A stretch of 64,000 bases of DNA, taken from positions 4,933 through 68,932 of the IMG/VR virus record IMGVR_UViG_3300033076_001470; one strand, written 5' to 3'. The position numbers and the translations under genes were made by a program. A model generated the notes under the pieces. That model was given only the letters and a program-made list of their open reading frames with translations. It was not told the origin of the DNA and made no database searches. This document shows positions 25,298 to 57,400 of the stretch, piece after piece; position 1 is the stretch's first letter, and every line of letters starts with the position of its first letter. The stretch is from a virus. Taxonomy: Duplodnaviria > Caudoviricetes.

Positions 25298-26530
25298 ATG
25301 GCAGTTAAAAGAATTCGCAACAGCGACGGCACGCTGGCATACGACGCCCAGGGGCAACCGGTGTGGGGAATTGATGTTCGGGTGTCTCAGGGTGAAGGGA
25401 AGCCGCGCCGCCGAATTCGCGCCAACGAGTTTCGATCACGCGAAGAAGCTGAACAAGCCGTTGTCACAATTCGCGCCAGTGAGCGAGCGTCCAAATACGG
25501 ACTGCCATCGCCAAAATCAAAACCAAAATTGCAGCAACTAATCGCCCAGCGACTGTTGACGATTACCGTGCGGAGCGAACGCACGCGGGCGCGCCGTGTG
25601 CTGTACACGTGGCTGCAATTGCTTGATCCGCTGATCTGTCTGGATGGTGATTTTCAGCCATCGGGCGGGTATTGCTCGGCGTTCAACGTCGAGAGCGTCA
25701 ACACACCAGAAATTCGCCAATACGTCGAGTTTCGACAGGCTGGCGGACAATCGGCGGCATCAGTGGACAGGGAACTGAACATTATCAGCGCAACGCTCAA
25801 CTCTGCCAAAGATTTTTACCCGGAGCTTCGCCTGTGGCTTGTGCCCAAAATTCCACGTCCCAAGGTTCCCAAAACCCGGCGAGAGCGAATCATTGCCGAC
25901 GCTGAGTATCGAGCAATTCTGAGTTATTTGCAGCGCGACCGGGCTTCCAGTGAAAGCCATTCCGAATACCAAATCAGGATTCGCGCGGCCCATCTATTGC
26001 GCTTTGCGTTGCAAACCGGAATGCGCCCCAAAGAGATTTTTCAGCTTCGCTGGGAAGATGTGGACTTCGATCAACAGCGGATTCGAGTGCGAGGAACCAA
26101 GACGGAAAACCGTGGCAACTCTACGCGCTACGTGCCGTTGACTTCGCACGCAGCAGAAATTGTCGCAGCCAGGCGCGCTGTCGGGGAAAGCATGGAGTTT
26201 GTGTTTTCAATCAGCGGCAGTCCCCGGTATACCGATTACGACAGGCTCAGGGAAGCGTGCGAAGCGTCTGGGATTCCGTATGGGCGCAGCGTTGAAAATG
26301 GCTTTGAGCTGTATTGCGCGCGCCACACGTTTACGACCAAACTGTTATTGGCTGGAGCGACGCTATCTGAAACGGGAGCGGTGACGGGACACAGCGACAG
26401 GGAACTGATCTTGTACTATTCGCACGTCACTCCGGAGGGAACAGAGCGAACTCGCGAAAAGCTGGAACAGATCGAAACCGTGCGACTGACTTCTCCGAGT
26501 GTCCAAATCGTGCCCACAGTTGAAATTTAA
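25298..26530 (+). CDS. int: Tyrosine integrase
   Basis: TGMRPKEIFQLRWEDVDF, YCARHTF, TGHS...LYYSH; N-terminal arm-binding domain. Confidence 0.92.
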   Translation: MAVKRIRNSDGTLAYDAQGQPVWGIDVRVSQGEGKPRRRIRANEFRSREEAEQAVVTIRASERASKYGLPSPKSKPKLQQLIAQRLLTITVRSERTRARRVLYTWLQLLDPLICLDGDFQPSGGYCSAFNVESVNTPEIRQYVEFRQAGGQSAASVDRELNIISATLNSAKDFYPELRLWLVPKIPRPKVPKTRRERIIADAEYRAILSYLQRDRASSESHSEYQIRIRAAHLLRFALQTGMRPKEIFQLRWEDVDFDQQRIRVRGTKTENRGNSTRYVPLTSHAAEIVAARRAVGESMEFVFSISGSPRYTDYDRLREACEASGIPYGRSVENGFELYCARHTFTTKLLLAGATLSETGAVTGHSDRELILYYSHVTPEGTERTREKLEQIETVRLTSPSVQIVPTVEI

Positions 26531-26710
26531 GTCCGCAAAATCCGATTTAGGACAAGCAAAACACCCGCATAAACGCAATAAAACCAACAATCCAAACTTT
26601 TTTTTGAAAAACTTGCTGCCCCCCTTCGGCATTCTTTAGCCTAACAAGCGATTGATAACAAAAGAGTTGTCAGTCGCTTTTCTCTTTTTTGTCCAAACTC
26701 CGTCCAAGTT
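26501..26710. other. attP-like region (arm repeats, IHF site, tRNA-3'-like core)
   Basis: GTCCAA-type repeats at 26501, 26590 (variant), 26691 and 26702; exact IHF consensus on the minus strand at 26645-57; CCCCCCTTCGGCA (26619-31) resembles a tRNA-Leu 3' end. Confidence 0.55.
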
Positions 26711-26798: not shown

Positions 26799-27113
26799 GT
26801 GAAATCATCAAAACTGCCTTTGCTGTTGTCGGCTATGGCTCTGGTTTTGAGCCTTGGCGCAATCACGCCGCATATTTCCAGTATTCCCAAATTACAAATA
26901 CCTGCTTGGGCTTCCACGTCTCAGGCTCAGGCCGCTCTGACTGAAGTACGGTTGGCCGACGGGCGTAAGATCGGGACAGCCGCAAAAGATGGCGACATGT
27001 GGATATTTACGCACACAAGCGGAAAAAAGCTTGCCGTGCCAGACAAAGACGTAACTGTTGCCGGAGACCATCTGGTTATCGTGTCAATGCAAAACAGCAA
27101 GGAGGTGAAATGA
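26799..27113 (+). CDS. Small secreted protein
   Basis: Signal-like N-terminus MKSSKLPLLLSAMALVLSLGA. Confidence 0.6.
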   Translation: MKSSKLPLLLSAMALVLSLGAITPHISSIPKLQIPAWASTSQAQAALTEVRLADGRKIGTAAKDGDMWIFTHTSGKKLAVPDKDVTVAGDHLVIVSMQNSKEVK

Positions 27114-27400
27114 AGCGACTTTTTGTTGTTTTTTTGCTGTTGCTTCCGCTGTCAGCATGCACCGACGAGGAAAAGCAGGCTGCCGCCACGGCTGGGTCAG
27201 TTCAGGACTCGACAGTAACAAAGGGAAAGCGAGAGGCGGACAGGGAGCGCAATCTCTACGAAGAGCAGGTTGTTAAGCCAACGCCGACGCCGACGCCTGT
27301 TGTAATGCGCGACGTTTATTTGGTTTCACTTCCGGCTGCTGAGTATATGGCGGAGGGCGAACCTAAGCTGCCCAAGCGCCCAGGCGCAAGCGGGAGGTAG
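27110..27400 (+). CDS. Small lipoprotein
   Basis: AAGGAGG SD; MKRLFVVFLLLLPLSA-C lipobox. Confidence 0.7.
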   Translation: MKRLFVVFLLLLPLSACTDEEKQAAATAGSVQDSTVTKGKREADRERNLYEEQVVKPTPTPTPVVMRDVYLVSLPAAEYMAEGEPKLPKRPGASGR

Positions 27401-27491
27401 GACATGTATAAATCACTGATTATAGGGGTTGCCGCAGTTTGCGCTTACGTGCTTTACCGGGCTGCAAAGCGGATTTGGAGGATTAGCAGCA

Positions 27492-28328
27492 ATGTTCAAA
27501 AAAATTGATTGGGGACAGTGGGCTTTATATCTCTTGGCCGTGGTCGTGGTGGAAGTCGCTTCCATTGTGTTGCTGTGGAAAGCCTACCCCGGCAAAGAAA
27601 TGCAGATCATTGGCTGGGTAATCTTGGTCCTGGTGTTAGGGTTCAGCGGGTATGCCACCTACAAATCAAGTGAGCCTGACGACGTGGTGCGCCAAGTCGG
27701 AATTGTCGGGAAGGTGGCATTGGCACTGCTAGGCGTCGCCGCTCTATACGGGCACATCGCAATGTCTCGCGAGCTTTCAACGGCAAGAGAAGGGTACGCC
27801 GAGTACCAAACAAGGGAAAAATTCCGGCAAGCCCAGAAAGACAAAGACGCTGCGCGCGAGGTTGAATTAAAGCGCGCAGACGCTGATCAGCAGCTTGCGC
27901 GCGCTCGATTTGAGGCAGCGGAGGCTCAAAAGCTCCGATTGCTGCCGCCAAGCCTGCGGCAAGGGCAGCAGCAGTTGAGGCCAAAGACGGTATCGCCGAC
28001 TCCGGCTCCGTCGCCTACTGGCGAAGAGGGTGCTCCTGTTGTTGCTGTCGTTCAACCAAGAGCCGAGTCCGCTGTTCGCGAAGAGTGGCTAAGTTATTTT
28101 CAAACAATCAACCTGCTGCAAATACTGTTTTCAGTGCTGGGCGCTTTGGGAGTCAGCGTGGCGCGCCATTGGGACAGAAAAGGGATTGCTGGCGTTCCTG
28201 ATTGGCTGGAACGTGTATGGCATGCGGGACAGTCTGGTCAGGACTACGTGCGAACGCATTACCCGCAACAAGCGAGCCGTATTGAATCTGCGTTTCGGCA
28301 GAATATGGTGCCGGTGGGAAACCTGTAG
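27492..28328 (+). CDS. Multi-pass membrane protein with coiled coil (short, zero-frame product)
   Basis: GGAGG SD; about 4 TM segments, coiled coil and Pro-rich linker; ends GTG GGA AAC CTG TAG. Confidence 0.75.
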   Translation: MFKKIDWGQWALYLLAVVVVEVASIVLLWKAYPGKEMQIIGWVILVLVLGFSGYATYKSSEPDDVVRQVGIVGKVALALLGVAALYGHIAMSRELSTAREGYAEYQTREKFRQAQKDKDAAREVELKRADADQQLARARFEAAEAQKLRLLPPSLRQGQQQLRPKTVSPTPAPSPTGEEGAPVVAVVQPRAESAVREEWLSYFQTINLLQILFSVLGALGVSVARHWDRKGIAGVPDWLERVWHAGQSGQDYVRTHYPQQASRIESAFRQNMVPVGNL

Positions 28329-28362
28329 CGCCTGCTGCACTAGTTGCTCCGCAGCAGGCGCT
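28316..28362 (+). other. Programmed -1 ribosomal frameshift signal
   Basis: In-register G GGA AAC (28316-22), 4-nt spacer, 12-bp perfect stem AGCGCCTGCTGC/GCAGCAGGCGCT (28327-38/28351-62). Confidence 0.7.
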
Positions 28363-28942
28363 GCCATCATCGCCGCCATCGCCGCTATCAGTGCCGGTTT
28401 CGATGCCGCAAGCGCCGCCAACGACGACGCGCCCCGGACAAAACTTAATTCAGTTTCCTGTGCCAGGTTCGGCAATGCCTGCTGGCGGCACGCAGACGCA
28501 AGGGAGCTTAGCGTTAAGCAATCCGGCAACAACTCCCGTTTTTGCGCTTTTTCCTTCTCAACCCGTGTCGCTGCCAGCGCCGTCGCCAGTGCTGGCTGTT
28601 TTACCCTCTGCACCGCAGGGGGTGGACGCTGAGCGGGAGTGGCTTCGAGGTTTGTTTCCATCTCTACCAACAGGGAAGTGGTGGGAGCCTCGCCGGAACG
28701 AAAAGGGCTGGGTTGTGAATTTGTGCTGGCGTAAAGACGGACAAAAAAACGCCACGCGACACACGTTTCCTCGCATAGGATTGCGAGATTATCAAACTGT
28801 TAAGGAGATGGATCTTCATGACCAACGTGCCTACTTTTACGACCGCTTCGTCGGCGACCTTCTCGCCGACGAAGGAACCGACAAGCGCGGCAGCCACAAA
28901 CATCTTGCCAGTTGGCTCGCTTGCCCGACTGGTAACAGTTAA
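28322..28942 (+). CDS. -1-frame C-terminal extension of the membrane protein (Pro-rich linker plus Trp-rich domain)
   Basis: Frame open from 28286 to 28942 with no good SD; reached by the -1 slip. Confidence 0.6.
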   Translation, partial: PVAPAALVAPQQALPSSPPSPLSVPVSMPQAPPTTTRPGQNLIQFPVPGSAMPAGGTQTQGSLALSNPATTPVFALFPSQPVSLPAPSPVLAVLPSAPQGVDAEREWLRGLFPSLPTGKWWEPRRNEKGWVVNLCWRKDGQKNATRHTFPRIGLRDYQTVKEMDLHDQRAYFYDRFVGDLLADEGTDKRGSHKHLASWLACPTGNS

Positions 28943-29210
28943 ATCTGCGGCTCAGGCAATGACCGTAGCCGACGACAAAGAACAGAAATCGTTGCTTCGA
29001 GAAATTGAAGGGGCGATCAATAGAAAACCAGCTTTCCCGGATTCCAGGCTGAGCGAGATTAACGCGCTTGTGCAGTCGCTGAAGACCGCGTTTTCAATTG
29101 AAAGCGCGCTTGCTCTTCAGCAATTAGCTGAAGACTGGATCAAGGAGTATACGCCTGGTGCGACCGCGCGAGCGCAGGAGGCTGTTGCGGCGTTGTTGGC
29201 GGCAGCATAG
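28818..29210 (+). CDS. Hypothetical helical protein
   Basis: AAGGAG SD; overlaps the last 125 nt of the frameshift extension. Confidence 0.55.
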   Translation: MTNVPTFTTASSATFSPTKEPTSAAATNILPVGSLARLVTVKSAAQAMTVADDKEQKSLLREIEGAINRKPAFPDSRLSEINALVQSLKTAFSIESALALQQLAEDWIKEYTPGATARAQEAVAALLAAA

Positions 29211-33710: not shown

Positions 33711-36700
33711 TTATCGCTGAGCCTGCTGAATAGCCCAGCCTGCTATCTCTGACGCTGAGGCGTCAGCTGCTCGCGCAGCCCTCTCGCGCACGACGGACAC
33801 TTTTCCTGTTTTTTTGCTTGTGCGAGAACTTGCGGCCCGCGCTCGGTACGCTTTTAACTGCTCGTCAACCAATTCGCGCACGGCTTCCCTGCCAGACTCT
33901 TTCATCTTTTGATAGGCGGGCATTTGTCGCAGGGTTTCATAGGTGTCCGCGCGCAGCGCTTCCAGCTCGCGCTCTGTTTCGATCGAGCCTTCGCTTAGCT
34001 TTGCTGCGCGCTTCATCGCGTCAGTGGCCAGTTCTGTGCTGTAGATTCGCGCCTTGGCCGCGTCGGAGCGGCCAGATTGTGCGGTGTCACTGGCAATGCG
34101 GCGCAATGTAGCTTTAACCGTTTCAGCCTGTTCAGCCAGCCGCTTGTTGTATTCAGTCGCGCTTTCCCCGGCGTTTCGCTTAGGCTTCGGCAATCCTGTG
34201 CCCAGTCGGATCATTTCTTCCAGTTGTGGGTTGCGCTGAATTTTTCGCCAAAACGCAAACGGGTTGGTTTCTTCAATTGGCTGTCCCAGTGCGTCCAAAC
34301 GCTCCACCATTTGCGCGCGCGAACCAAAGCCAATATCCACCGGCATTCCCGATTGCAAGTCCCCTTTCAGCCTGCCCAGCGTCGAAGCCTCATCCGGCAT
34401 CCGCTTTGTCGGCGACTGAATTTTCGCAATATCGCGCGCCGCTCCCGGCACAAACCCGCGCAGTTTTCCTGCAACGTATTGCCCGGCGGAAGTTGAATGC
34501 GTGTCGTCGCCTGCAATATCCTTTGCAGCCTGTCCTAACGGATTATTGAACAGTAATCCTTCTTTTGCGGCGGTGACTGTCCGTCCGATCCGTTTGCTGG
34601 TTTCTTCCGGCTCGCCGGTTTTGGGATTTGTGCGAGACTTCTGCGCTTCATAAATGCGCGTGGCAATTCCAGCGGCTTGGCCAATTGGCCCCATGCGGTT
34701 TAGATTGAAAGCGTAATCCCCTGCCCCGACTTCTGGACCATACCCAACACGCATAACCTCGCGCGCGTTTTTCAGGTTCGGACGGTCTTTATCGTCTTCA
34801 CTGCCCCCAGTAAAAGCCAAATACCCAAACGATCCTAGCGCGCCCAGCAATGCCCAGGAAAGCGACCCAACCAGCCCCTGACGAAGCAGCTCCGCTGTGT
34901 CTTCCCCAAACCGCTGTCTGGCGAATTCGCCTTTGTAGCGCCCGGCGTATTCTCCGCCTTTGGCCATTGCCATCCGTCCTGCCACTCGCCCAAACGCGAC
35001 TGGAGAATACCGGAACAGGTACGTATCCACGGCAGCCAGTGGAATCTTGCTGAATGGCACGACAAAGTCCATTGCAGCTTTCCAGGTAGCGTCTACAGCC
35101 TTGCCAACGCCTTTTTCTGAGGCCTTCCCCAGCACGCTGTTTGGCAGATCGCGCAGTTTTTGCAGCGCATCATAGGCCAGCGTCGGATAATCCAGCTTAA
35201 ATCGCATTGTCGCGTCGTCGGCCAGCGTAACCATCAGCGCCGATGGGCGGTAGGCCAGATCGCGCGCCAGGCCTTTTATTTCCTCACCTGTCAAACCGTT
35301 CTCTTTTCCAATCTTTCGCGCCATTGCATTGGCTTGGGCAGAAATCGCCGTCGCGTTGACCATATTGGAAAACAAAATATCTGCCGCGCCGTGGCTGCGC
35401 CCAATAAAGTTCAACACCTGGTCAAGTCCGGGAATTAACTTGGCGCGATGGCCAAGCTCAAACTTATCTGTGCCGCCAGCGTGTCCAGCTTCAGCATCGT
35501 CCGCTTCGATCATTCCCTGCGTGATGCCGTATCGAAACATATCCAACACGTCGCGCGGAGCGTTTCTCAATCCCGTGCCCAGTCCTCGAAGCTCAGCCTC
35601 AACGGCTGGAACCAAGTCGCGGAAATCGGTGACGGCCCGGCTGTAGGGAATTCCAAACTTATTCAAAACACTCGCCGGAACGATAACATCAGCAACGCGC
35701 TGCGCTTCATGCAGCGGCATTTTGAACAACTGTTCCAGCACGTTAAACAAATGGATGTGCGGCGCGCTCAACAAAGAAGATTTGTAGGTCTTGGCGGTGT
35801 AGCCTGCCAAAGTGGTGTATTCCCCTGCCTTGGCCAGCGCGTCGGCAATTTTTAGGCGAGAGCGATCAAACTGTCGCTTGGCAGTCTCGTAATCCTTGCT
35901 CCCGGACTTGGCTGTCTGCATTGCCTCGTGCGCCTGAATCAGGTCGTTGGTTTTGGCCAGCGTGTCCGCAATGAAATCAGCCTGCCGGTTAGCCAGCCTG
36001 TCAGCGACCGGCTTTAATCTAAGCTTCTTTGCCCAGTACAACGCACGCGCGCCGGGCAGCGATCCGGCAACGCCGCGCCCGCCAGCGTTCAGCAATTCAT
36101 CCATTGCCATATCTTGAATCTTGTACGGATCAATGGTCAGTGGCTTATGCTCGCTGAGAATTTCGCGCAGTGGCGAAGTCTTAGGCTTCGGCTCGCTGCG
36201 CAAAGATTGCAGTCCGCCAAAAACAGAGCCGAGAACAGTGCCAGTCGGCTCGCTTGCTAACTCTCCAAAACTGAATCGTCGCTCTTTTCGCTCTGCGACG
36301 CGAGGAACTCCCTCAGCCTGTCTTCGCCCTCCCGATGACGAATCAGCAACGCCTCCTGAACCGCGTCCTGCTTGCGATTCCGCTCCTCGATTACCTCTTC
36401 CAGCGACTTCCGCCGATCCTTTGGCAATGGTGTCGGCAGTTTGAGTTTCATTTCTTGCTCCTTCCAGCACGGGTTGCAGTTTGGGGTCAATCGCGCCAAA
36501 CTTTTCCAGCGACCGCGCGCCGTATTTTTGCACCGTGGCGCGGTAATAAGAGTTCATCACCTGCACGGCTTCGTCAAGCGACAGACCAAAGATGCTAAAA
36601 TCCCCTGAAGCGATGTATGCCACAGCTTCATACCCATGCGTCTTGTCGGCATACCCTCGCCGCGCGAGTTCCGCTTTGATTTTTTGCGCTTTTGGCTGCT

Positions 36701-39700
36701 TTGCCAGCCAGGCTTCCGTTGCCGCGCCGGTCAAAGTCTGATCAACCGCTGACTGCGCCGTGTGAGTTGTTTCGTGACGAACGGCTTGCTTGATCTCTCC
36801 TATCGCCTGTCCTGCCCGCTTGGTGACAATGGCGACGTCGCGACCGTTTGCGTCGGCATCGTCCGCTGCGGTGTCCAGTTCGGCTGCAATTCCGGTAAAC
36901 GCTCCGCCCGCTCGTTCTCGCATCGCGTCCGCAGTGTGACGGGCTGACTGTGAATCCAGCGTGAAATCTCCAGGAATTCCAGATACGCTTTCTCCGAATA
37001 CAGTCACCAGCGAATCGCGCACCAGCGCGTGTCCCCACTCGTTTAGATAAACTGTGCCCGGACGGTTTCGCGCCGGGCGATACTCCGCTGTCGCATTCGT
37101 TGCCAAATCGCTGACCGTGTACCGGCCAGTGAACGCAGCATCGCCGCGCCGCTCCGCAACTCTTGGCGCTTTGGTTTGCAGTGACACGCCCGACGGCAAT
37201 CCATCACCCCTCAACAAGGCGTCCACCATTTGCCGAGCGCCAGCCCCGTCTACCTGCACTTCCATGAAGCTGCCACGCTTGGCAAAATCCATTCCCGCCG
37301 CTTTCAGCAATGCTGAATTCAGGTAATACTTCCCGCCTCGCCCCTTGGCCGCAGGTACAGAAAACACATACCCATCAATCCCCTTGGAGATTGTCAGGTC
37401 ACCCGTGCGGTCGGTGACTTGCGCGCCGCGCCCCCCGTTGACCGCCGTCATCACCTCGTCCACGGTTTTCAGTCGCTGTTTTTGTTTTGCAATGGTTTCT
37501 GCCGGATCAAAGCTGGACGGCATCAAGATGCCCTGTCGAATTCCCCCTTCGTTGTTGGTGAAATTAACTATCTGGCCGTTGGGAGCCGCGCCGAACCCGG
37601 CAATCAGATTCCCGGTCACCATGTACCGATTCTCTTTTGTCGTTGCCAGCCCTTTATTAAAGGCTTCCAGTATTGGCAGTCTAACAAAATCGTCCTTGGC
37701 CGGATCGTACACTGTGGCGCTTTGCGCCGGGCGTACGACAATGCGATTAGTGCCGCCTTCACTTTCGTTGAAATCAATCTTCGACAATGCCACCGTCATT
37801 TGCCGCCGCGAATCAGCCAGCGCGACTGTCGCCCGCCATCCGCTCAGCGCTACGGGATTTGCGCGCTTTCCTTTCCGCTCGACACTTAGCACTACGCCAT
37901 ATCCGTTGGCGATCGAAACCGTCGCTCCCGGATACACGACGCCAGTAATTTGCCGCCAGCGGTTCAGCCACTTATCAGCGGCCAGTTGTTCCAGTTGCCC
38001 GCGCTTGCTGTCACCATGCTCTTCCTCCATCTTAAGCTTGAAGGCGTCAACCTCTCTACTAAGCCTGCGGCGCATTTCATGGATGCCCATTCGCCCCTCC
38101 GCTGCTAATTTTGCCAAATCTCCCGCGTCGCCCAGTGAGGCTTTCAGTTTTTCCATCACCTCGTCAGAGGTAAACGGCTTTCCTTGCCGATTGACGCTGA
38201 CGCGCTCCAAATTTGCCGCCTGCTCAAACAGGCTTGACCCTGACCCGGCCACCAGCGGCTGAGTTTTCAGTGTTTCCGCGTCCAGGTTGAGTGTTTTTGC
38301 TTCCAGCGCGTTTTCGCCCATTGCTTCGGCTTGGCGCAGCGCGTCTTCGTATTCGTCGGTTAACTCTTGGTACACGCGCTCTTGCTCGGCAATTGTCAGT
38401 AAAGGAACTCGCCCGGTCACTTTGCGCATCGCGTCTTCGCGTTCCAGCCCTTCGCTTCGTTCGGAATCTTTCAGCGGGTACCCCAAAGCTTCATGCAATT
38501 CAGGATTCGATTCCATCAAGCTGGCCGCCACTTCATCGCCGTATTTATTCAAAAAGTCTGGCACGTCTTTGGCCGTGACCGCGCTCGACCGGCTGGCAGT
38601 TGTGTTCGCGTTCAGGCTGGCCATTTTCTTTGCCAGCACTGCCGCCGGGCGAAGCTCTGCCGGAATGTCGGCGACCATCTGGGTATATCGCGGCGGGACG
38701 ACTTGGCCCGTGCGATGAACACGCCCCAACATTTGCATGTGGGTGTCAATGTTCTTTTCCGCCTGCGCAATGATCATGTGACGCCGACGTTGGTCTTTGA
38801 ATTTTTCGCTGGCGTGCAAGCTGATCCCAGTCGAACCTGACTGGTTCAAAATCAGAACGTCCATCGTGCCGTCATTGAACGCTGCAATAGTTCGCTTTTT
38901 GGCCGCCGTCGAAGTCTCTGATGCCGGGCGTGTTGCGTACGTCGCGCCGTCGCTTGTGTAATTGACAATATGACCTCGCCCTGTGATTTCACCCGTGCGA
39001 TACCCAGCATCGCGCAGCCGCTTGTGCAGCCAGTCAATTGGCGAAATTGGAATATCCAGGTTCAATCGTTCAAGAGTCTTGGCCGCCTGCTTGTAGGCTC
39101 TAACGCCTTCTTCTCCCAGTTCTTCGTCGCTTAAATAATGCCGGGTTTTTTCGCCATACGGCTTGCCAATCACTACCTCGCGCGACCGCTCCAAATATCG
39201 GTTCAGCAAATCGTTGAAAGACAAGTTAATTGGCGCACCTGGCTGTAATTCATTGTCTTCGGCAAACCGCTGGATAAAACTTCCCATCGTGTTTGCGACG
39301 GTAATAACGGGCTTTTCTCCGGCTTCCAGTGCGCGAATCGCCGTCTCTGCCGCCTGATCTGCTTTTAACGCAAGCAGCGATTGCTCAATCAAGTTGTGCA
39401 TCAGGCTGGTGAAATTGACCGAACTAACGCCCGCTTGCCCAACAGACCCGTCCACAGTAATGCGCTTCGCTTCGGCTTTTACGCGCTCGTTCAACGTCTT
39501 CAATGCCGCCTGCTTGATTCGATCAAACGCCGCAACTTCACGCATCGCCTTCGACACACTTTCCGCCGTTGTTCGATCCACTTTTGTCGGCGTTGGCGCA
39601 TATTCCACGCCTTTGAACGACCGCTCGCGGCGGATGTATTGCCCCGACTCTGCGAGCATTGAGGCAATGACCTGTTGCATTGGCACGCCGCCTTTTTGGG

Positions 39701-42700
39701 TAATCTCCGCCAGCTCGCCCAAATCGCCGACCGCCTTGCCCAATTCAGTGCGAAAGTACAAATCCATTACTTCAGGGCGCTTGGCGAATGTTGCCGACGA
39801 ATACAACACACCTTTCGCGTTTTTGGCCATCTCCCGCGCAAACTGCGCTCGATTGAATTGAGGCTTACCCTTTTCGTCCATCTCGACTTGTCCTGCCCCG
39901 CCCGCATTGTGAGATTCATCGAAAATCACAATGCCATTGTTTGCAAAACGGCGCAGCAAGTCGTGTCGTGCGCTCAGCCTGCCCTGAACGCTTTGCATTT
40001 GATTGTAGGTGGTGAAAATCACGTGATGGCCGCCCAGGTTTCCTGTTTCGGCAATTTGCCGAAGCGCCGCCTCGTGCGTCTTGCCTGCCTGAGTTTGCAA
40101 AAACTTGCCGCGCTTGGCTGGCGCTGGCCATCCCAACAGCTTAGCTTTTTCTGCGGCCCCGTACCATTCCAGCGCCTCATCGTCCAGTGGCACGTTTTCG
40201 CCCGCGTTGGTAATCAACGGCTTCAGATTTTCTGATCCAATGTCGGTCAAATCTCGGATCATGTCGCCATACAGTGTCGGCTTTTCGGTGACAAAAACAG
40301 GCGTCAGTTTTTGTCGGTTGGCGTATCGAATTACAGCCGCAACCACGCGCCCTTTACCAATGCCCGTCTGGTCTCCCAGAATCAGCGCGCCGCCTTGTTC
40401 AATATTGCGAATCGCCATTGCCACGGCGTCCACCTGTTCACCGCTCAGGTATTTTCCGATTTCATCAGGCTTGTAACCTAACCGGTCAGCGACATAATCA
40501 TCCAGATCGCCAACTTCCTCTTTCAGCCGCCGCAGAGAATTGTCCACCGCATTGGCCATATTCACCGGAACCAGCGTTCCAACTGAATACGAGCTGCTGG
40601 CAGGCTTGTAAGCGCGATGCGTGTCGGAGTCCGCTTCGGCGATTTCCTGGCTAGGTTTGGCTTGGAGCTTGGTTTGATCCTGCTTACTGGTATCTTTGCC
40701 TTGCGCCTGCGTCTGGAAGTCTTGGACAAATCGCAGGATGTACGGTTTCATCCGTTCTAGCTCTGTTTTAGTCGCGTTATAGACTTCCTTCAGATGAGTG
40801 AGCAGTCGGCGAATAACTTCGCGCACGTCCGTTGTCGCGTTTTTGAAGTGTGCAACCGCCGCTTCGAATAGCGGCTTCGCTTTCGCGTAAGATTCTTCGT
40901 CAAAGACCGGCCCGCTACCCAGCCGGTTCGGGTCACCAAACAGATCGAGCAGCCCTTTGGCAATATCATCCAGGCCAGCGACAGTCTCTTTGGCTGCCGA
41001 TTGTGCGACTTTTCTGGTTGTGTGTTGGCCTGATGCGCGCTTTGGCTTGTCTTTTTGGGTCAGCTCTTTGCCGCGAATGTCGGCAGCCTCAAGTAGCCAT
41101 ACCCTGTCGCTCTGTTTCAGAGTGTCAAGGAAACCGTTGTTTTCTTCCATCAAGTCCAGCAGCACGTCTAGCGTCTCAGCCGTCAACAACTTGTCCCGCA
41201 GTTCTGACACGCGCTCGCTGTTTGGTTTTTGCTTGGTTCCGGCGTGTCCCTCGCCTCCCAACTTGCTCACCACCGAGCGCGTTTCTTCCGGTGCTTCCGC
41301 AGTCAGCGCGCCATAGATGCTATCCACCTTGTCGGCCAGATCGGGACGCTTTTCTTTTAGATACTCAGCCAACGCCGCCAGCGCGGCGTCGTTGTCCATC
41401 ACGTGATTAAACTGCGCATGTAAATCTGCCGTCTTGTACGTGTCAACATATCGGCCAATAGTTTGATCAAATATCTGGCGATATTCTAGCGTCAATGCGG
41501 ATGGCTGTAGCTCAACGATCGGCGTCTTTGCGGGTTCCTCCCCGAATAGGTTCGCTTGCGCTACCCGCTGCCCGGATTCTGGCTGGAAGTGTGTATTGTA
41601 AGCTTTGATTGCCTCTTCGATTGCCGATTCTTTGCTGTTGGCCGTCATCCAGCGAGCATCGGGAGCAAACTTATATTGCCACGAGCCATTGTCGTATGGG
41701 CGCAGCAAGTTGACCTGTCGTAGCGCTTCCTCGCTGGGCTGAGCCGTCGCCGACTGCGGTGCAGGTTCATCGCCAAACAGATCATTAAGTTCTTCGTCAA
41801 AAATGGCATCCGCGCTTGATTTTGCGGCTTCTTTGGCTGTGCGCGGTGGCTGACCCACTGTCGGCTGGCTTGCGCTCTCATCGCGTAACGACCGCTTGTA
41901 GTCTTGAACCTCTTTATTCAAAGCCCTGACATCGGCATCAAACTGCTTCCGCGTGTAAGGCTTCTCGCCGCCAGGCACGGCATCGCCAAACAGTTTGGCG
42001 AATTCCTCGTCAAAGACGCCGCCTACGAAAGATGCTCGTCCAGTCCCAGCGTCAGCGCGCTGACCCACTGTTCCAGGTTGGTTTCCTCGATCAACTGCTT
42101 CGCGCGCAGATTGTCCTGACTCAGTATCATTCGCCCCGGAAACGCGCCCAGGTTGCTCAGCCGCTCCTGCAACTGGCTGTTGTTGAAGATTAGCCGGTTT
42201 AGCGCCTCGCTTTGGTCTCGCAGGCTCGGACGCTCGTCCAGTAGCCCCGCTTCTTCCAGTTGGTTTGTTAGATACAGCAGGCTCCACTCTTTGGGCATTT
42301 CCCACTGTTCGATCATCGCCTGAACTCGATCTTGCAGGTACGCCATATACGTCGGCATCGGCAACGGTGCGTCGGCTGGCGCTAGAATCGCGCTCACTCG
42401 CGGACAGTCCGCGCTCGCCCAGCCGAACATTGTCGGCTGCGACCGTCTCATTTTGACCGCTGCGGCTTGCAAGTTTTTCTCCTACCTCGTCCCAAGATCG
42501 AAGCGTTGCCGGAACGTCGGCGGCAGGCAATGCCCGCTGCGACCGACCGCGCCCCTCAATGACAATGACATCTACCGGCGAACCTGCGCCCTGCTTTTGG
42601 TACAGATCGCCCAAAACTGTAAAATGGTCGGTGACATTATACTGATTGTATAATGTGAAGTAAAAGCTTCTTTTTGCCCCGGCGTTGTACGCATTTGACC

Positions 42701-45700
42701 GCCCAGCATCACTATCCGCACGCGGAGCGCCAACAATCAAAACAGCTTTGCCGTCGTCTTTCATTGCCTTCAAGGCTTCAAAGGCAATCGCGTGATCAAT
42801 TTCTGAAGTCTGATATTTTCGATCAATTTCAAAGCGCAGCGTGTTCCCGGCTTCGTCTTTGACAATTCCAAACGGCGGATTGGCAATCACGCGATCAACC
42901 TTTTGATCCGGCTTCCACTCTGCTGCGTTGTGTTCGGTTACAGTTGCGCCCGGCAATAAATCGCGCACCGTCGCCGCACGCTCCGCGTTCAATTCGTTGG
43001 CGATGATCTTGCTTGGCTCCGCAGCCAACAGCAAAGCTGAATGACCGGCGCTTGGTTCATAAACTGTCGTCTGAGAACTGATCCCTGCCAATTCCGAGGC
43101 GACATACGCCAACGGCAGTGGAGTTGAATATGCTTGCTGTTTTATGCTGGTCGAAGTTCGCGCCGACAGGTTTGGCAGCCGATCATACAATTCCCGAATT
43201 GCCTGAAACGTTGCTTCGGGTGACTTTCCGTCCGCAACAATCTGTCGCGCAGCCAGCACAGCGCCCGCTTCAATCGCCTCGTCAACCTGCTTGGTTTCCA
43301 GTGATCCAGGCTTCACTTCGCGCCCGGTTTGTTCAGCAATAAATTTCCGCGCCTCGACAATATTGGCAAAACCTTTCCCGTCGGCTAGATGCGCGGCTAC
43401 AGCCTGCGCCAATTGTCCCCGCTCGCTTGTCGGTTTGATGGTTTCTCTTGGCGACTGCGGCTTAACAATGCTGACCCCAGCCTGATTGTCTGGATTGGCA
43501 ACGACAACGCGACCGTCAGCGGTTTCAGCTAAAACCGGTTTGCCATCAATTGCCGGGTTGGAATGGGTAACTGTTTTCGCGTCGCGTTCGCGGCTTTGGT
43601 ACCGCTCGCGCGCGGCAATTGCCCGCTCGTGCAGCTTTCGCACTTCCGCCATCCACGCGGACGACACGCCGGACGGATTTTTGTCCAGTGTTACGCTTGT
43701 CGCCTGAATAACCTGGTCAAGCTGAGACTTTCGGCCTTCACGGGAAGGGATTGCCAATCGGTCTAAGTCGGCGTTCTTGTATTCGTTGATAATTTCAACG
43801 TTCTGTCGGGCAGGAAGCCGATTTTCTTCGACTCGCTTGTGCCTGTTCCCACGGATTTTCGCCAATGGCCCGGCGTTTTCGCCAGCCGCGCGCAGTTCGT
43901 CAATATCTTCGGCTGAAACGCCCGTCCATTTTGTAAAGTCGTAAATTGTTTTTGGATCAATATCCACTTCGCCTTGCACGGCGCGCCGATACAAATCTTC
44001 GACTTCAGTCATGTAAGCGTCAAAGTCTTTATCAAAGACTTCAGACGGTCTGATTTTTAGGAGTTGACGTTCTCGCTGGGTTGGCTGCCTTGGCTGTCGG
44101 CTTGATCCTCTGCTTGGTTCTCCGCCAGCATTCTTTTCACTTTCCGGTGAACCGCGTCTAGTGCCCCCAGTTGCCGCATTTGCAGGCGAAGTTTTTGTGG
44201 AACGGACAGGCCTTCGCGCTCGGACGATCTCTCCGACTGTTTCTGCACTGATCCCGTATTCATCGGCAATCCTGTTGAATTCATTGAATGCATTATTGTC
44301 TCCCTGCGCTGCCTGTTCAAGCAAATTTACAATCTCAGCATCGCTGAAAATTCTTTCTATCGCGTACACTTCGCGCTCAGTTTCAAGATCATCAAAAAAC
44401 GTGTCCAGGGCTGTGACTTCACGAACAACTTCGTCTCGCTGCGGCTTCGGCAACCGCTCAGCGTCCGCCAGCACTTCTGCGCGCTTGTCGTCAACGCTCT
44501 TAATCGCTTGCTGAACGGTGTCCATCGAAAGCCCTTGCCCTTCCCAGAACGCTTTCTCGCCGTGCCAGTTCAGGGCATAGGCCACCATCGCATCAACGTG
44601 ACGCTGCTCAATTCCGGCCTTTGCCGCATCTTCCGTGATCCAGTCAATGGCGTCGTTGAACGCTTCCGAGGTTGGCTCGTTGTCGTAAAGCGCGCGCTCC
44701 GGCTCTACATTTCGCCGCTCTAATTCGTCATACGGCGAAAACGAAACCAGCCCGACGCCCGGTTCAAACACGCCCGCCCTCATTGATCGAATGTCGGCAT
44801 CGCTGCCGTACTTCATGACCTCGTCAGAAGTCGCAGCGGCACGCTTCACCCAGGAATCACCTTCGTCTGACTCCCGCGCATAATCCGCAATCGTTTTTCT
44901 CTGCGGTGGTCGGTTGTCGGTGGCCGGTAGTTGATTGCCAACGGCCTCGCTTTCCGTCTCCGGCGAAGCCTCAGCCTGCCATTGGTCAAAGAATTCCCCA
45001 ATAGAACCGGCTGGCCGCGCGCTGCGCCCGCTCCGCATTTCACCTTCAATCGCCTGGAATAAATCGTCAACGGTTGAATCTTCCGGCAAGTATCCGGCTT
45101 CAACCATTGCCTCGCGCATCCTGTCGGGAGCCAATCCGCCTCTGTTATTGACCAGTCCAGTCGTTCCAGACTCCTTTACTCCTAGCCGTCGCAGCTCGCC
45201 CGGAGAAATCGAATCGTTGGCGATTCCGCCTGCTCGTCGAATTGCGGTCAACATTGGCGTCGAATCTTCTTCGACATCGCCAATGGTCGGCACAGCACGG
45301 TCGAACATTGCGCCCGGCTCGTAAAAGCTCTGCACCGGAGGCGTGCCGCCTTCTGGATTGCTGACGGCGTCCGGTCGAAACAGTGGCGGCACGGCCTGCG
45401 TGACCGGCACTTTTTGGCCGCGTTGCTGCTTTCGCAAATCACCAATGCGGTTGCCGATCTGTCCCTGAAACCGATTCAAGTCTGCTTTGATATTTTGTGA
45501 CTCCGGCGTTCGCGCCAGATACCGCACGGCGTCACGCAATTGATTTTGCTGGACAGTTAACTCGTTGATCGCTTCAGCAATCAGTCCTTGATTCAGGTAT
45601 TCTTGATGGCGACGACCGGCTGTGTCGGCTGCCTGCAACGCGGCTGAGTGCATTTGCATTTGCTGCAATTCGTTTTCCGCAGACTTCCGCGCCTTTTCGT

Positions 45701-51406: not shown

Positions 51407-54400
51407 TTATCGCTGAAGCCGGAAGCTCAGCAGGTCAAGATAAAGAAAATTTGAACCGGATGGTGCGTTTCGGTACGAGTATCGAAACTCTTGACTAGAA
51501 TTTACCGGCAACCAGGTGGTCGAAGTGATCCCAGGATTTTGCCCGTAAACGCCAGTGGCTCCAGCTGGATCAAGCCCGGTTCCTGCCGACCCCGCCTCTG
51601 AAGTATCAAAGTACGCAATCCCCGCCGTCGCCAAGTTGTAAATTGTCGCTTCAAAGGCTCGCGCACCGACCGGCATTACAGTGCTAAGAGATTTGGTTGT
51701 ATTTGTACTTTGGCTTTGATTTGTCAGCATTCGATTAACGCTGGTCACGTCAACCAAATAACGTACAATCAACAACTCTGATTGCCCTTCGGCCTGAAAA
51801 TTGGCCAGATTGCCATCAAACGAAAGCGGCGCAACGCCAATAAGTCGCCTTGACGTGTCACCGGTTTTGCTTCGAGCGGTACCGTACCAAGCCGACGCTG
51901 GAGCAGTCGCCGTCACTTCAATTGCCGCCGTTCCACTGTTGTCGTAGGCGTAAACGTAATAAATGAACTGAGCATTGACAGTCGCGCCGCTGGAATGAGT
52001 TGCCGCTGTCGAATTATTGAATCCACGAGTACAAGTCAGAGTGTTTGACGAACGAGTGCAACTCATTTGCTCTGAGTCCACTTTAATTGTCAGCGAACTC
52101 GGCATCCAGGAGCCGTCTGTGATTGAAATTGTAGTTGTGGACGTGTCTGAAACCGCCGCGCTCAGCGTCGTGGTGCGCGTGATCGTGCTACTGGTCAGCG
52201 TGGACGCACTGGTAAGAAGCGCACCTGTGCTTTGAATTTGAGCCTGCCCCGGCGAGACGCTGACTGTTGAGCTTGACGCCCAACTGACGACCAGTCCACT
52301 AATTTTCCCCGTTAAACCCAGACTGGCATTTAGTATTTGCCAGTTGGAGCCGTCGCTTTGAATTGTGATAGATTCGTTTTGTCCGGCAATTCTGACAATC
52401 AACGAGCCGTCAATAGTTTCAGACGCGTTGCCATCAAACGTGCAAACGTTGGCCGAAGAATCGGTTTTCTTCAGAATGTAGACGCGACCCGTCAGCCCCG
52501 ATGATGCTGGCAAAGTCATCGTTCGAGCCGCACCCGAAGCATCACACAGAATTGTTGAATACGTTGCGTCAAGAGTTGGACTGGAACTCACAGACGTTAC
52601 AGCCGTGGCAATTGGCCCCGCAACAGTCAATGGGGTGGAGGCATGAACAGCTGTCCCGATGCCGACTCTGTTAAACCGTGTGTTTGCCGATGTCGAGCCA
52701 TTTTCAGTTAGAACAGAAACAGCACCAACAGACATAAAAGACGACGCGTTGATGGTGACTGCCGTCACCGTCCCGCTGCGATCAACAGTAAACCGATTGG
52801 TTCCTGCATCTGCCAGATTCAACAGATTGACGGTCGATCCGGTCAAAGAAGTATTCACAGTGTCCACGGCAAGGACATTTACTGTAGTGTTTGCGTTTGA
52901 CGCACCGGTATTGATCGTCGGCTTAATCAAAGAACCGTAGAAAGTCCGAGTGTTTGTGTCGTTTTTGGTGACAGAAAAAGTCAGATCATTGAGGGCAATT
53001 GTATTTGTCGCATCAGTGTTAATTGTCGGGCCAACGACTTTGAGGGAAGTGACTGAACCTGCTGCCCCACCCAAGCCGAGTCGCGCGAATTGCGGAGCGC
53101 TACTCGTCGCAATGTCTTGCGGCAGGCTCAGCGTGACCGCACCGGTCGAAGCCGAGGCGTTGACTTGATTTGTCGTTCCCGTGATCGAATTGACGACGTT
53201 GGTCAGGCTCGCACCAGAACCTGACGGAGTCAAGTAGTCAGTCCCAGCAACGGCAACTGCAAGCGTATTTGCCGCTGTGCGTTTGATTATTCCGGTCGAA
53301 GACAATCCCGTAATCGTATCCAACGAAATCGAATTTCCCAGCGCAGTCGCTGTTCCCGCAATCGTAATTGAAGAATTGGTTAAAGAACTATTTCCGATAT
53401 TTGTGATTGTGTTGCTTGCACCGCTGATCGTTTTATTGGTCAGAGTGTCGGTTGTTGCGCGCCCGACAATCGTGTCAGTTCCTTGGAATGTCTGAGTTGT
53501 TCCATTGGGGACTGTTATCGTTCCCGTCGAAGTTGTAATCGCCAAACCGTTGAAACTTGCGGCAGTCAATGCACCAGTAACATCAACCGTTGTCCCAAAA
53601 AAAGCGGAGCCAGCACTATGGAGCGAACGGTTGATCGTTCCGCCGTTAGATTGGGCTTCGATGTACAGCCCATATTGGTTGGTTCGAGTTCCAGCAGTTT
53701 TCGCCGCATTTTTGATGTAAATTTGCGCCCAATCCGTGACGCTACTGCTGACATTTGTTTGTGAGCTGGCAGCCGCTTCAATAACGTGAACCGCGCTTAC
53801 TGGCGAAGCAGCCCCGGTCACGTTGACCGATCCACGAACGCCTACCGCCGTTGTCACTGTTCCAGTCGTTGCCAAATCTGCTACGCCATCCACGCCAGTT
53901 ATCAGCGTGACAGAACCCGTACCGCTTTTCAGAGCATAGCCCTTTACACCGATCATTCCCCCGGCTGCGGCTGTGAAATTGAAAGAGTTGATTGATTCAA
54001 CTTGGCCTTGGATACCTATTTGCGAGTTCCCGTTATTTGCCCCTTGATTGAGAGCCAGGTAGGTATTGATACCAAACCCGCCCGCCGTCGTGCTGTACGT
54101 GTCAGCTACGTCAATAATTGTCGTGGTTGATTGTCCGCCTTGGGCAAAAGCTGCGTGGCCAGTCGTCGTTAGGCCCGTTGCAGGTGCAGTCGTACCTAAT
54201 CCCAGCCCGGCAAATTGCGGAGTTGCAGTCGTGGCCAAAGTCGAACCACCAAGAGCCACCGCTGATCCTTGAATGGTGATCGAAGAATTCGCCAGCATCG
54301 CATTGGTGACACCACCCGTAGCGACCGCCAAAGTGATCGAACCAGCACCATTGGTTACCGTAAGAGACGAGCTTCCGGTCAAAGTAGCAGCAACAGGGTT

Positions 54401-57400
54401 CGCACTCGTTGATCCGATCAATAGCTGGCCATTTGTTGCCGCCGCTGTTGCCTTAATGTCATCCGTTCCGTTGCCAAAAACAAAGCTATTTGCCGTCAAC
54501 GCTCCAGCAGTGTGAGTAACCGTGCCAGAACCGCCACCAGTTGCTGTCAGAGTTCCCCCAGACAGAGACAGACCAGAACCGACTGTGATTTCTTGAGCCG
54601 ATCCAGCAGACCCAGCCGACCGCCCCAACAATCGTGCATCAGTAACGTTTTGGATTTTGGCGTAGGTGATTGCCTGATTTGCAACAGTCGCAGCAAACGA
54701 CCCCGTGCCACTTCCAGTCACATCACCAGTCAGAGTGATTGTTTGGTCACCGGTATTTGTCCCTGAATGGGTTCCGCCGTTCAGCGTCGCATTCCCACCC
54801 AAAGTCAACGTGCGAGCCGCATCACCCACCGCAACGGTCAGAGTTCGGCCAGCGGTGAGATTTTCACTGTTCGCAATTGTCAGATCGAACGCGCCTGCGC
54901 CTGTTGATCGAATCCCCAGCGCAGTCAACGCGGTAAACGAGCCACCGGCAACAATCGGAGCCGCATTCATCACAACGGTCGAACCCGTTCCAGTTTTGGC
55001 TGAAACGTCTGACAAGTCGGCCAGCGCCCAAACTTCTTGACCGCGAGCAATCGGGATTGTTCCGTTGGTCAATTGCGTGGCATTTAGTGCCGTCAAATTC
55101 GCGCCTGATCCATCAGTCATCAAAAAGGTTTTGGATGCGCCATTGACGCCAGCCTTCCATGCGTTCGCGGTCGAATCGTAGGCGACCAAACCATTTGCAG
55201 TCGGAGCCGCACCCGCGCTTGTGGGTACTTTTAACGAAGTTGCTGAGCCGAAATCTTGAGCGCCCGTTGACCAGGCGTTTGCCGCATCGTTGTAGACCGT
55301 GGCCGCATTCTGGCGAGCTTTTGCCAGTGTCCCAGTGAATCCCAGCGTCAAAGCTTGGGCAGAGATTGAGCCTGTGACATTCGTATCATTGACAACAGAA
55401 TTCACTGCCGTCGAAGGCAATTGACCAGCGGTTGCTGTGCCACTCAGATTTGAAAAAGATGGCTGTGCGAGACTAACGACACCTTGAGCCGAAATCGCAG
55501 TTACAAAGTTATTGGCTGAACCAGTGTTTGCTTGAACCGTCGTCGAGTTGGCGTTCGGCACATTCACTGTGCGAGTCGTCGCCGTGGCAACGTTCGACAC
55601 ATCAAACTGAAACTTCTTGGACGTGTCTGTTGGGTCAACAATCAGATGGTTTGCGCCGCCCTGAAATGTCTGAACGAATGCCCCAAACGTATTGACCTGG
55701 TCTGTGTAAACCGTTGTGGCATTCTGGCGAGACTTGGCGAGAGTTCCGGTCCAACCAAGTGTATGCGTATTCGTCGCCGACGTGATTGTGACATTGGTAT
55801 CATTCGCAAAAGTTTGGCCTGATCCTGTTTGGCCATTCAATGACGTGATTCCACCGCCGCCGCCTGATCCACACGCCGTCCCAGTTTGTGAGATTTGTCC
55901 ACTGCTGTTGACTTCCAGGCAGCCCGCCGACGCAGGCAACGTCGTTGGCAACGTAAAAGTCAATGAAGAGGCAGGCGCGCCCCCACGTAATGTCGTCGTG
56001 TTTGCATTGGTTGAATTGCTGAAAACAGCAGTGCCTGTAACAGACGAACCAATCCCAAAATTTACAGACGTTCCAAAATATCCCGAACGTACAGGGACGC
56101 TACTTGAGCCAAAATCATAAGAATTTGCCGCACCAGGCGTGAAATGCCCCGCCGTTCCTACCGTCCATTTTTCAGAGTTGTTCGACCACAGCCCGAACGG
56201 ATGATTACTTGTCGTTCCCGCGATTGCTCGATCCGGCGCGCCAGCCAATGGCCCAAACCGCGTCGTAATACCGTTCGTTGTGTCATTGGCGGCAAAGTAT
56301 GGATTGCCACCCGCGCGCTGAAGCAAAAACGTCGTGCCGTCGTAGGTCAAATTGGCCGAACTGGTCAGATGCTGAACGCCGTCATAAAACGGGACTCGGT
56401 TTGCCGCGCCCGCTCCGGCTAAACCTACCTGCCGATAATCGGCTGACGCTGAGTGAGGCAAATAGAGAACGCTTTCACCGGTTGTCAAAACCGGCCCCGC
56501 TCCGCCATTGAACGTGCCGCTTGAATTGGCAGCCAAGGTCAGCGCACCAGATCCAATGTTTCTAACATAAATAAATTGCTCGCGTGATGCTCCATAACCA
56601 GGCCACGCCAGCGTCAAAGTGCAAGGCGAAGCGCAGTTGGCTTCATAATTGGTCGCGCCGGGCTGGGTATAACTGGTTGACGTTGTGATCGTCTGAACCG
56701 GATTGCGCGCGTCCAGGCGAAAAATCTTTTCTGACCGGTTGTTTGTCGTGTTTCGATACGAGGTGATGATTTGACCGTCAGCCTGACGCACATCTCCCTC
56801 AATCGTGACAGGCGGCAAGTCGTTGGCGTGAATAACCTCACTGTTTGCGTAATAACTTAACGGAGAATTTGCGAACACAACCAACGGCCCAATGTTGCCC
56901 TTGGGAGATTCCGCCGGATTTGCCGCTGTCACTTCATATGACAACGCTTTGTAAGTCCCGCTTGCGCCCGCAATTCCTGCAAAAAGCGTACGGCCATCTA
57001 AGTAAGATGTAGAGCTTGAGTAGTGCAAAATTCCATTATAAGAAGATTCAATATTGCACCCCCAGCAAGAAAAATAAGCTGGTAAATCGCCTGTCGCGCC
57101 GTCCTGACCAGTCTTGTCGCCAATAATCGCCCACCACGAGTTGGACGAACTGTTATTGATTCCATTGCATCCCCAGCAATGAATGTCCCCTGTCCGAATT
57201 CTGAATCCTGCCGGATTTGTTACGTTCACGTCCTGAGCGTACAGCCCTTCAAACGTGTTTCCAGGCATGTTGAATTGATTGAACAGGAATGGATACCCGC
57301 TGACCGGCGCGCTGGCGTAGATTCGCTTGAATGTCGAACTGAAAACGTTGCCAAAGTAAACGCCATGACTCCCGACATCTCGAACAATGACGTCTTCGAT

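Follow-up and report, generated by a model that had tools for sequence, protein, structure and literature searches.

To our knowledge, conserved programmed -1 ribosomal frameshifts (PRF) in bacteria and phages are few outside insertion sequence (IS) elements, dnaX and the tail assembly chaperones. In this work, we describe what is very probably a real, conserved and canonical case in gene A, a membrane-protein gene found in a 64,000-nucleotide (nt) stretch of temperate-phage DNA (hereafter, the window) that corresponds to positions 4,933 to 68,932 of the virus record IMGVR_UViG_3300033076_001470 (Duplodnaviria; Caudoviricetes; 68,932 bases). This degree of confidence concerns the frameshift only and not the function of its products. 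The recoding mechanism is already known, but the gene A family is undescribed.

Among the described systems, the tail chaperone pair G/GT of phage lambda resembles gene A in several aspects. The heptamers are nearly identical (G_GGA_AAG in lambda and G_GGA_AAx in gene A) and precede the stop of the upstream frame by a few codons, the slip appends a C-terminal domain to a shared N-terminal part, and the signal is conserved across diverse homologs. In-frame fusions are also found in some lineages, both in the gene A family and in the T4-like tail chaperones (PMC10885494). Nevertheless, gene A encodes a membrane protein instead of a soluble chaperone, is located near an integrase gene and not between the genes for the tail tube and the tape measure, and has a strong 3' hairpin. 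A tail assembly chaperone was in fact considered as the identity of gene A and rejected, given the absence of any Pfam or PHROG tail-chaperone match, the four transmembrane (TM) helices of the product and the location on the integrase side rather than among tail genes.

The dnaX (tau/gamma) and copA (CopA(Z)) genes of Escherichia coli also show a bacterial heptamer followed by a 3' stem-loop, with two isoforms sharing a common N-terminus (PMC5009743), and copA is, like gene A, a membrane-protein gene. In both of them the slip leads to early termination and to a shorter frameshift product, whereas in gene A the slip would bypass a stop and the product would be longer. Moreover, no upstream Shine-Dalgarno (SD)-like stimulator is evident at gene A. 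In IS3-family transposases (OrfA/OrfAB), a hairpin or pseudoknot accompanies a -1 PRF that joins a second domain to a small N-terminal protein, and the two products differ in their roles. In contrast to OrfA/OrfAB, gene A has no transposase domains, encodes a membrane protein and presents a C-terminal domain with no fold match. Finally, the alphavirus 6K/TF system (U_UUU_UUA) has in common with gene A a -1 PRF inside a membrane-protein gene, which creates an alternative C-terminus by means of a heptamer and a 3' stem-loop. It differs in being part of a eukaryotic RNA virus polyprotein, in the use of Sec61 and in the short trans-frame tail, while gene A would add 206 residues with a folded domain.

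The slip site of gene A

Gene A starts with an ATG preceded by a strong SD, GGAGG (duplex -9.3 kcal/mol), and ends with the codons GTG GGA AAC CTG TAG, which places the heptamer at 28316-28322 in the X_XXY_YYZ register. The elements of the slip site, in window coordinates, are the following.

27492..28328, + strand: gene A, zero frame, 278 amino acids (aa) (translation, homolog alignment, AlphaFold2 and TM scan)
28316..28322, + strand: slippery heptamer G_GGA_AAC, X_XXY_YYZ register (sequence; in-register heptamer conserved in 15 loci)
28326..28328, + strand: zero-frame stop TAG, one codon (CTG) beyond the heptamer
28325..28364, + strand: putative stimulatory stem-loop, 14 bp with a 12-nt loop, 2-4 nt past the heptamer (folding and covariation)
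28322..28618, + strand: -1 frame, part 1, a linker of ~99 residues rich in Pro, Ala and Ser, with no start codon plus SD
28619..28942, + strand: -1 frame, part 2, a basic alpha/beta domain of 107 residues; stop TAA at 28940-28942

A previous sequence-only reading of the window had pointed out an in-register G_GGA_AAC one codon before the TAG, a perfect 12-bp stem 4 nt past it and a -1 frame open for 206 codons with no SD of its own, and these three statements were confirmed. The arms of the stem-loop (28325-28338 and 28351-28364) form 14 bp, one of them G-U and another a closing G-C, and the perfect Watson-Crick portion of 12 bp joins 28327-28338 with 28351-28362. The 60-nt piece that contains this hairpin folds with -31.8 kcal/mol (z = -4.6), a stability reached by none of 200 shuffles, and the 50 nt that follow the heptamer exceed 99.9% of the native 50-nt windows in the surrounding 9 kb in folding stability.

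The open -1 frame spans 28286-28942, and its first 110 codons contain no start codon with a usable SD. It continues for 206 codons past the slip (Gly-Lys), so that the predicted product has 483 aa and a junction reading ...VPVGK-PVAPAAL, that is, ...MVPVGK-PVAPAALVAPQQ... The window contains 119 open reading frames (ORFs) of at least 100 aa, with 70 in-register heptamers, and only the heptamer of gene A has a -1 frame running at least 100 codons past the zero-frame stop. Codon usage trained on the long genes of the window prefers the -1 frame over the other two, in the linker as well as in the domain. The extension is as the sequence-only reading had described it, a Pro-rich tether followed by a Trp/Arg-rich domain. 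AlphaFold2 modeled this domain (28619-28939), with only six sequences, at a predicted local distance difference test (pLDDT) of 87.7 and a predicted template modeling score (pTM) of 0.78, and such a confidently predicted fold is strong evidence of a coding frame.

Conservation of the frameshift signal

A protein search revealed 18 close homologs with 53-82% identity and 274-284 aa, except for one truncated sequence (227 aa). Their last ~20 residues vary freely, yet every full-length homolog ends in Gly-Asn or Gly-Asn-Leu. We read the DNA of 15 distinct homologous loci, reaching roughly 25% protein identity. Loci L001-L008 come from viral, metagenome and genome contigs, while L012, L017, L018, L022/L023 and L024 come from genomes of the same class; L013-L016 were found using a distant representative, and further scans of viral contigs added no other loci.

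Conservation of both heptamer and hairpin in homologs, proposed in the sequence-only reading as a way to check it, is what we observed. In all 15 loci, a slippery heptamer lies in register 0-18 nt ahead of the stop. GGGAAAA is found in seven loci and GGGAAAC in six, and CCCAAAA and AAAUUUU occur once each. Since the type of heptamer and the encoded residues change while register and slipperiness are kept, this pattern fits selection for frameshifting and not for the C-terminal peptide. The -1 ORF has 160-313 codons in 13 of the loci and 82-107 in the remaining two (L017 and L018), and the similarity in this frame begins immediately at the slip (GK-L/P-x-x-P-A-A). In the homologous loci a stop closes the +1 frame within 2-40 codons; in the window, this frame runs for 101 codons.

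The hairpin is conserved 2-7 nt 3' of the heptamer. The stems of the five closest loci align, and 96% of the cells of a 10-bp helix are paired, compared with only 20-50% in slid controls; four of these ten pairs show compensatory changes (e.g., U-A, G-C and C-G at one position). In nine of 11 loci the 50 nt past the heptamer are well below the native folding background (Fisher combined p ~7e-10), indicating a stable structure.

A profile made with the close homologs was searched against 1.84 billion representatives and recovered 80 clusters at 50% identity. We tested the C-terminal ends of 63 representatives of 230-340 aa, which are at most 50% identical, and found G-K, G-N, P-K or P-N within the last eight residues of 48 of them. 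These are the dipeptides encoded by G_GGA_AAx and C_CCA_AAx, and comparable windows from other parts of these proteins carry them at a background rate of 5.7% (p ~1e-46). One representative without such a dipeptide ends in S-N-F, like L012, whose heptamer is A_AAU_UUU. There are also around nine distant representatives (381-450 aa) in which the membrane module, the linker and a conserved C-terminal domain are all in one frame, and therefore the fused architecture exists in nature.

The family, of at least 80 clusters at this identity level, occurs in phage, prophage and metagenome sequences, and the comparison of its members shows, as far as sequence conservation can reveal it, that selection acts on both the signal and the two-frame architecture. 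The 15 loci and the C-terminal dipeptides thus support the earlier proposal of a canonical -1 frameshift in a non-tail membrane gene, with predicted products of 278 and ~483 aa.

The proposed mechanism and its alternatives

According to the mechanism that we propose, most ribosomes would read GGA-AAC-CUG and halt at the UAG, producing an inner-membrane protein of 278 aa whose four TM helices are accompanied by a long coiled coil and a small tail. Some ribosomes would pause on G_GGA_AAC owing to the 14-bp hairpin located 2-4 nt downstream, and the adjacent stop may add to this pause. The tRNA-Gly in the P-site and the tRNA-Asn in the A-site would then slip together, from GGA-AAC to GGG-AAA, and the -1 frame would be read for 206 codons. 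The isoform of 483 aa would be made up of residues 1-276, common to both products, followed by a flexible Pro-rich linker of ~100 residues and the basic alpha/beta domain of 107 residues. The short form would be the major product and the long form the minor one, and the two probably co-assemble through the shared membrane and coiled-coil module in a ratio set by the efficiency of the slip.

Some observations weigh against this interpretation. The heptamers of the gene A family end mostly in AAC or AAA, and in E. coli an AAG ending makes a heptamer far shiftier than either of these (PMC5009743). As AAG was never used as second codon in the 15 loci, a host with a different tRNA-Lys set is suggested. 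The hairpins of L015 and L016 are unexceptional when compared with the background, and the structures are weaker in L015-L018; the shorter -1 ORFs of L017 and L018, where the structure is weak, are moreover unlike each other. In L002, an AUG overlapping the UGA makes translational coupling possible at that locus. Homology could not be demonstrated among the C-terminal domains of the subgroups and of the in-frame fusions: hidden Markov model (HMM) and hhalign comparisons between the -1 domain of the window, the other subgroups and the in-frame fusions revealed nothing significant (best P 0.015). Finally, no library or fold match supports the function suggested below.

The possibility of two separate genes should also be considered, and we judge it improbable. 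In such a case, the -1 ORF would be self-initiated or translated by termination-reinitiation, the heptamer would only reflect a conserved Gly-Asn/Lys C-terminus, and the hairpin would be an element of mRNA stability or attenuation. This explanation would account for the cUGAUG of L002/L003, the only loci with a start codon at the junction, and for the TTG with a moderate SD at 28652 in the -1 frame of the window. It would also agree with the results of gene calling, which joined the frames in no record and left the -1 ORF absent from the called proteins. On the other hand, no conserved start with SD was found near the junction in ten of the 11 loci examined, the first candidates being 14-112 codons inside the frame and with a poor SD. 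The changes of heptamer and encoded residues with maintenance of slipperiness and register, the beginning of the -1 similarity at the slip and the existence of in-frame fusions also argue against two genes and for a frameshift.

Transcriptional slippage, in which the RNA polymerase would drop a base in a short A/G run and create a subpopulation of mRNAs with joined frames, would lead to the same two isoforms, and every heptamer does hold short homopolymer runs. These runs, however, have just 3-4 nt, while bacteria generally need around seven or more A or T (PMC5009743), and both the strict X_XXY_YYZ register and the hairpin 2-7 nt downstream are expected for slippage of the ribosome and not of the polymerase, which makes this explanation very improbable. 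A sequencing indel or a pseudogenizing frameshift that split one gene of 483 aa is hardly credible, even though some distant relatives are single in-frame ORFs and one 90%-identity cluster mixes fused and short members differing within a tandem repeat, because the break falls at a slippery heptamer beside the stop in each of 15 independent loci, drawn from different assemblies, and the close homologs have the same length, none of them being the single in-frame ORF that, in the sequence-only reading, would have refuted the frameshift (no fused-length form appeared among close homologs, with proteins of up to 487 aa eligible, and a search among longer proteins for relatives of P0001 found none, which is weak evidence).

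In the 90%-identity cluster just mentioned, the fused members (P0093, P0105 and P0112, with 401-416 aa) and the short ones (P0107, P0110 and P0111, with 292-301 aa) part inside a tandem ALGNRP(R)KPPSET repeat, which itself encodes G-N and P-K. This split could be the result of frame switching at the DNA level, through repeat or homopolymer indels, or of an assembly error at a fossil slip site.

The predicted short and long products

In the protein encoded by gene A, three TM helices at the N-terminus are followed by a coiled coil of ~60 residues, a disordered stretch rich in Pro, a fourth TM helix (TM4, residues ~203-224) and, after it, a helical tail of ~50 residues carrying a WDR-G-VPDW motif. 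The AlphaFold2 model, based on an 18-sequence alignment (pLDDT 68), shows helices at 7-31, 35-60 and 64-150, the last one being the third TM helix, which runs on into the long coiled coil. Residues 158-186 are disordered in this model and are followed by the fourth TM helix and the small helical tail (237-270). Four TM segments were detected by hydropathy in 75 of the family members scanned. The counts of Lys plus Arg (5.6 vs 3.8) mildly favor an N-in/C-in topology, and therefore the coiled coil may lie in the periplasm, with the tail and the frameshift extension in the cytoplasm, a weak inference.

Just past TM4, many relatives present the motif W-(E)-W-D-R-N-x-D/N-G-I-P/A-D, which is like a DxDxDG calcium-binding loop. 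The copy of this motif in the window (P0001 residues 226-241, WDRKGIAGVPDW) is degenerate.

The domain encoded in the -1 frame is predicted to consist of a helix, a beta-hairpin, a third strand and then three helices. Homologous -1 products occur in L007 and L008 (E 4e-11 and 5e-14, respectively). As a whole, the -1 products are kept as proteins inside subgroups (E 1e-9 to 1e-65) and form five or more sequence groups that show no significant similarity to one another, so that, judging from these comparisons, the extension looks modular. All the extension domains are rich in Lys and Arg, with 18-29 of these residues in the last 110 and a net charge from +1 to +17.

Using the -1 domain as query among proteins of 119-382 aa, no relatives were found. 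Searches with its model by Foldseek (PDB and BFVD) and VIA-align wide revealed no convincing fold (best Z 4.6; best Foldseek E 0.014), the ESM Atlas gave no usable match, and sequence and profile searches of the PDB gave no match. An AP2 or integrase-arm DNA-binding identity was considered for the C-terminal domains; the likeness was only by eye and unsupported by every tool, and the idea was dropped.

In one subgroup, the -1 linkers contain repeated Cys-Thr-Asp/Asn motifs (D-C-T-G/D), located at ~4130-4260 in L001, ~4170-4330 in L002 and ~4290-4430 in L005. The C-terminal domain that follows these linkers has a CxxC and a terminal Cys, and together such Cys motifs suggest metal binding or disulfides. 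L017 (2598-2921) and L018 (2589-2837), of the P0044 type, contain an in-frame Cys-rich extension resembling a zinc ribbon, after which come G_GGA_AAA and the stop; the slip site of these two loci may be decaying or second-tier.

Genomic context

Gene A is located 960 nt downstream of an integrase gene, after a gene for a lipoprotein. The neighboring features in the window are the following.

25298..26530, + strand: tyrosine integrase (Pfam Phage_integrase, 1.2e-19; phrog_1, 5.9e-42)
26646-26679: terminator-like hairpin after the integrase (terminator scan)
27110..27400, + strand: small lipoprotein gene, first of the putative operon (signal peptide, lipobox L-S-A-C, strong SD AAGGAGG)
27404..27508, + strand: ORF for a single-pass membrane peptide of 34 aa (strong SD GGGAGG), overlapping the start of gene A by 17 nt
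28818..29210, + strand: next ORF, 130 aa (strong SD AAGGAG), in another frame and overlapping the last 125 nt of the -1 ORF

The lipoprotein gene, the 34-aa peptide gene and gene A have the appearance of an envelope operon of three genes located downstream of the integrase. Relatives of the lipoprotein are also found upstream of the gene in L002 and L008 (neighbor clustering, cluster 3), and the upstream neighbors include an integrase in L013 and a terminase in L001. In L008, the upstream neighbor is a PSD1/PSCyt2 protein, a host gene typical of Planctomycete-like hosts, which places the gene at the edge of a prophage in that locus. The host of the window phage is probably Planctomycete-like.

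The overlap with the next ORF recurs in other loci (L001 4525-4779, L002 4603-4848, L005 4690-4932, L007 4396-4635 and L008 4438-4686), always in another frame and over the last 95-125 nt of the -1 ORF (neighbor clusters 5 and 18). It may represent a real coupling or a mere shadow of the conserved domain. In the window, the use of an in-frame ATG at 28959 as start of the next ORF would abolish the overlap.

Elsewhere in the window, an ORF of 4829 aa (33711-48200, - strand) contains the Strawberry-notch-type helicase domains AAA_34 and Helicase_C_4 of a giant polyvalent protein, and another of 2560 aa (51407-59089) has no Pfam match.

Possible function

Based on the position of gene A after the lipoprotein and membrane-peptide genes, downstream of the integrase, we tentatively suggest that these genes could form an envelope module expressed from the prophage (lipoprotein, small peptide and membrane protein), acting, for instance, in superinfection exclusion or in envelope sensing. 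Through the long isoform, a basic and possibly nucleic-acid-binding domain would be anchored to the membrane. The sequence-only reading had proposed a membrane-anchored effector or sensor, with the long product made in a fixed ratio.

Nothing in Pfam, PHROGs, NCBIfam or PADLOC named the gene A family when both frames, the neighbors and the distant relatives were searched, and tblastn found no match to the gene in any cultured phage among 50,697 deposited phage records. The sole library match was a weak one to phrog_312 (Rz-like spanin; E 0.0058), over the coiled coil. Regarding an Rz-like i-spanin, which would lie in a lysis cassette with an o-spanin, gene A has a lipoprotein gene upstream, and its protein has four TM helices instead of one. 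A TonB/TolA-type tether spanning the periplasm is possible should the C-terminus face outward; a Pfam search at E up to 5 found no match, TonB_C and TolA domain III included, and no fold match emerged.

The p16.7 protein of phage phi29 and the superinfection-exclusion modules of prophages offer a TM anchor, a coiled coil and a small basic C-terminal domain, or a location adjacent to an integrase with a lipoprotein gene. The comparison is a functional analogy only, as gene A shows no similarity to them in sequence or fold. We know of no use of frameshifting by either of them.

The median distance from the end of the last TM helix to the slip dipeptide is 51 residues, and in 45 of 66 proteins it lies between 45 and 59. 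In the alphavirus 6K/TF, TM insertion stimulates the frameshift maximally at 45 residues (10.1101/790444). Based on the resemblance to this optimum, we speculate that the slip might be mechanically coupled to TM insertion, with the isoform ratio reporting the state of the host membrane or translocon, and that the long isoform might tether a phage-specific, swappable nucleic-acid-binding domain to the envelope, controlling superinfection or lysogeny. We consider this scenario rather unlikely, and the spacing may simply reflect the conserved tail domain. If true, it would make gene A the first example among bacterial viruses of a frameshift tuned by the nascent chain.

Significance for the gene A family

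The second half of the gene A family is invisible to gene callers, and the recognition of its signal would correct many annotations of phages, prophages and metagenomes. The family also provides a natural series of heptamer and hairpin variants, with the endings AAC, AAA and UUU and never AAG, for studies of shiftiness beyond E. coli, as well as a bacterial system in which the coupling between membrane insertion and frameshifting can be tested. For the biology of these phages, the modularity of the C-terminal domains may point to a specificity function tethered to the membrane in lysogens.

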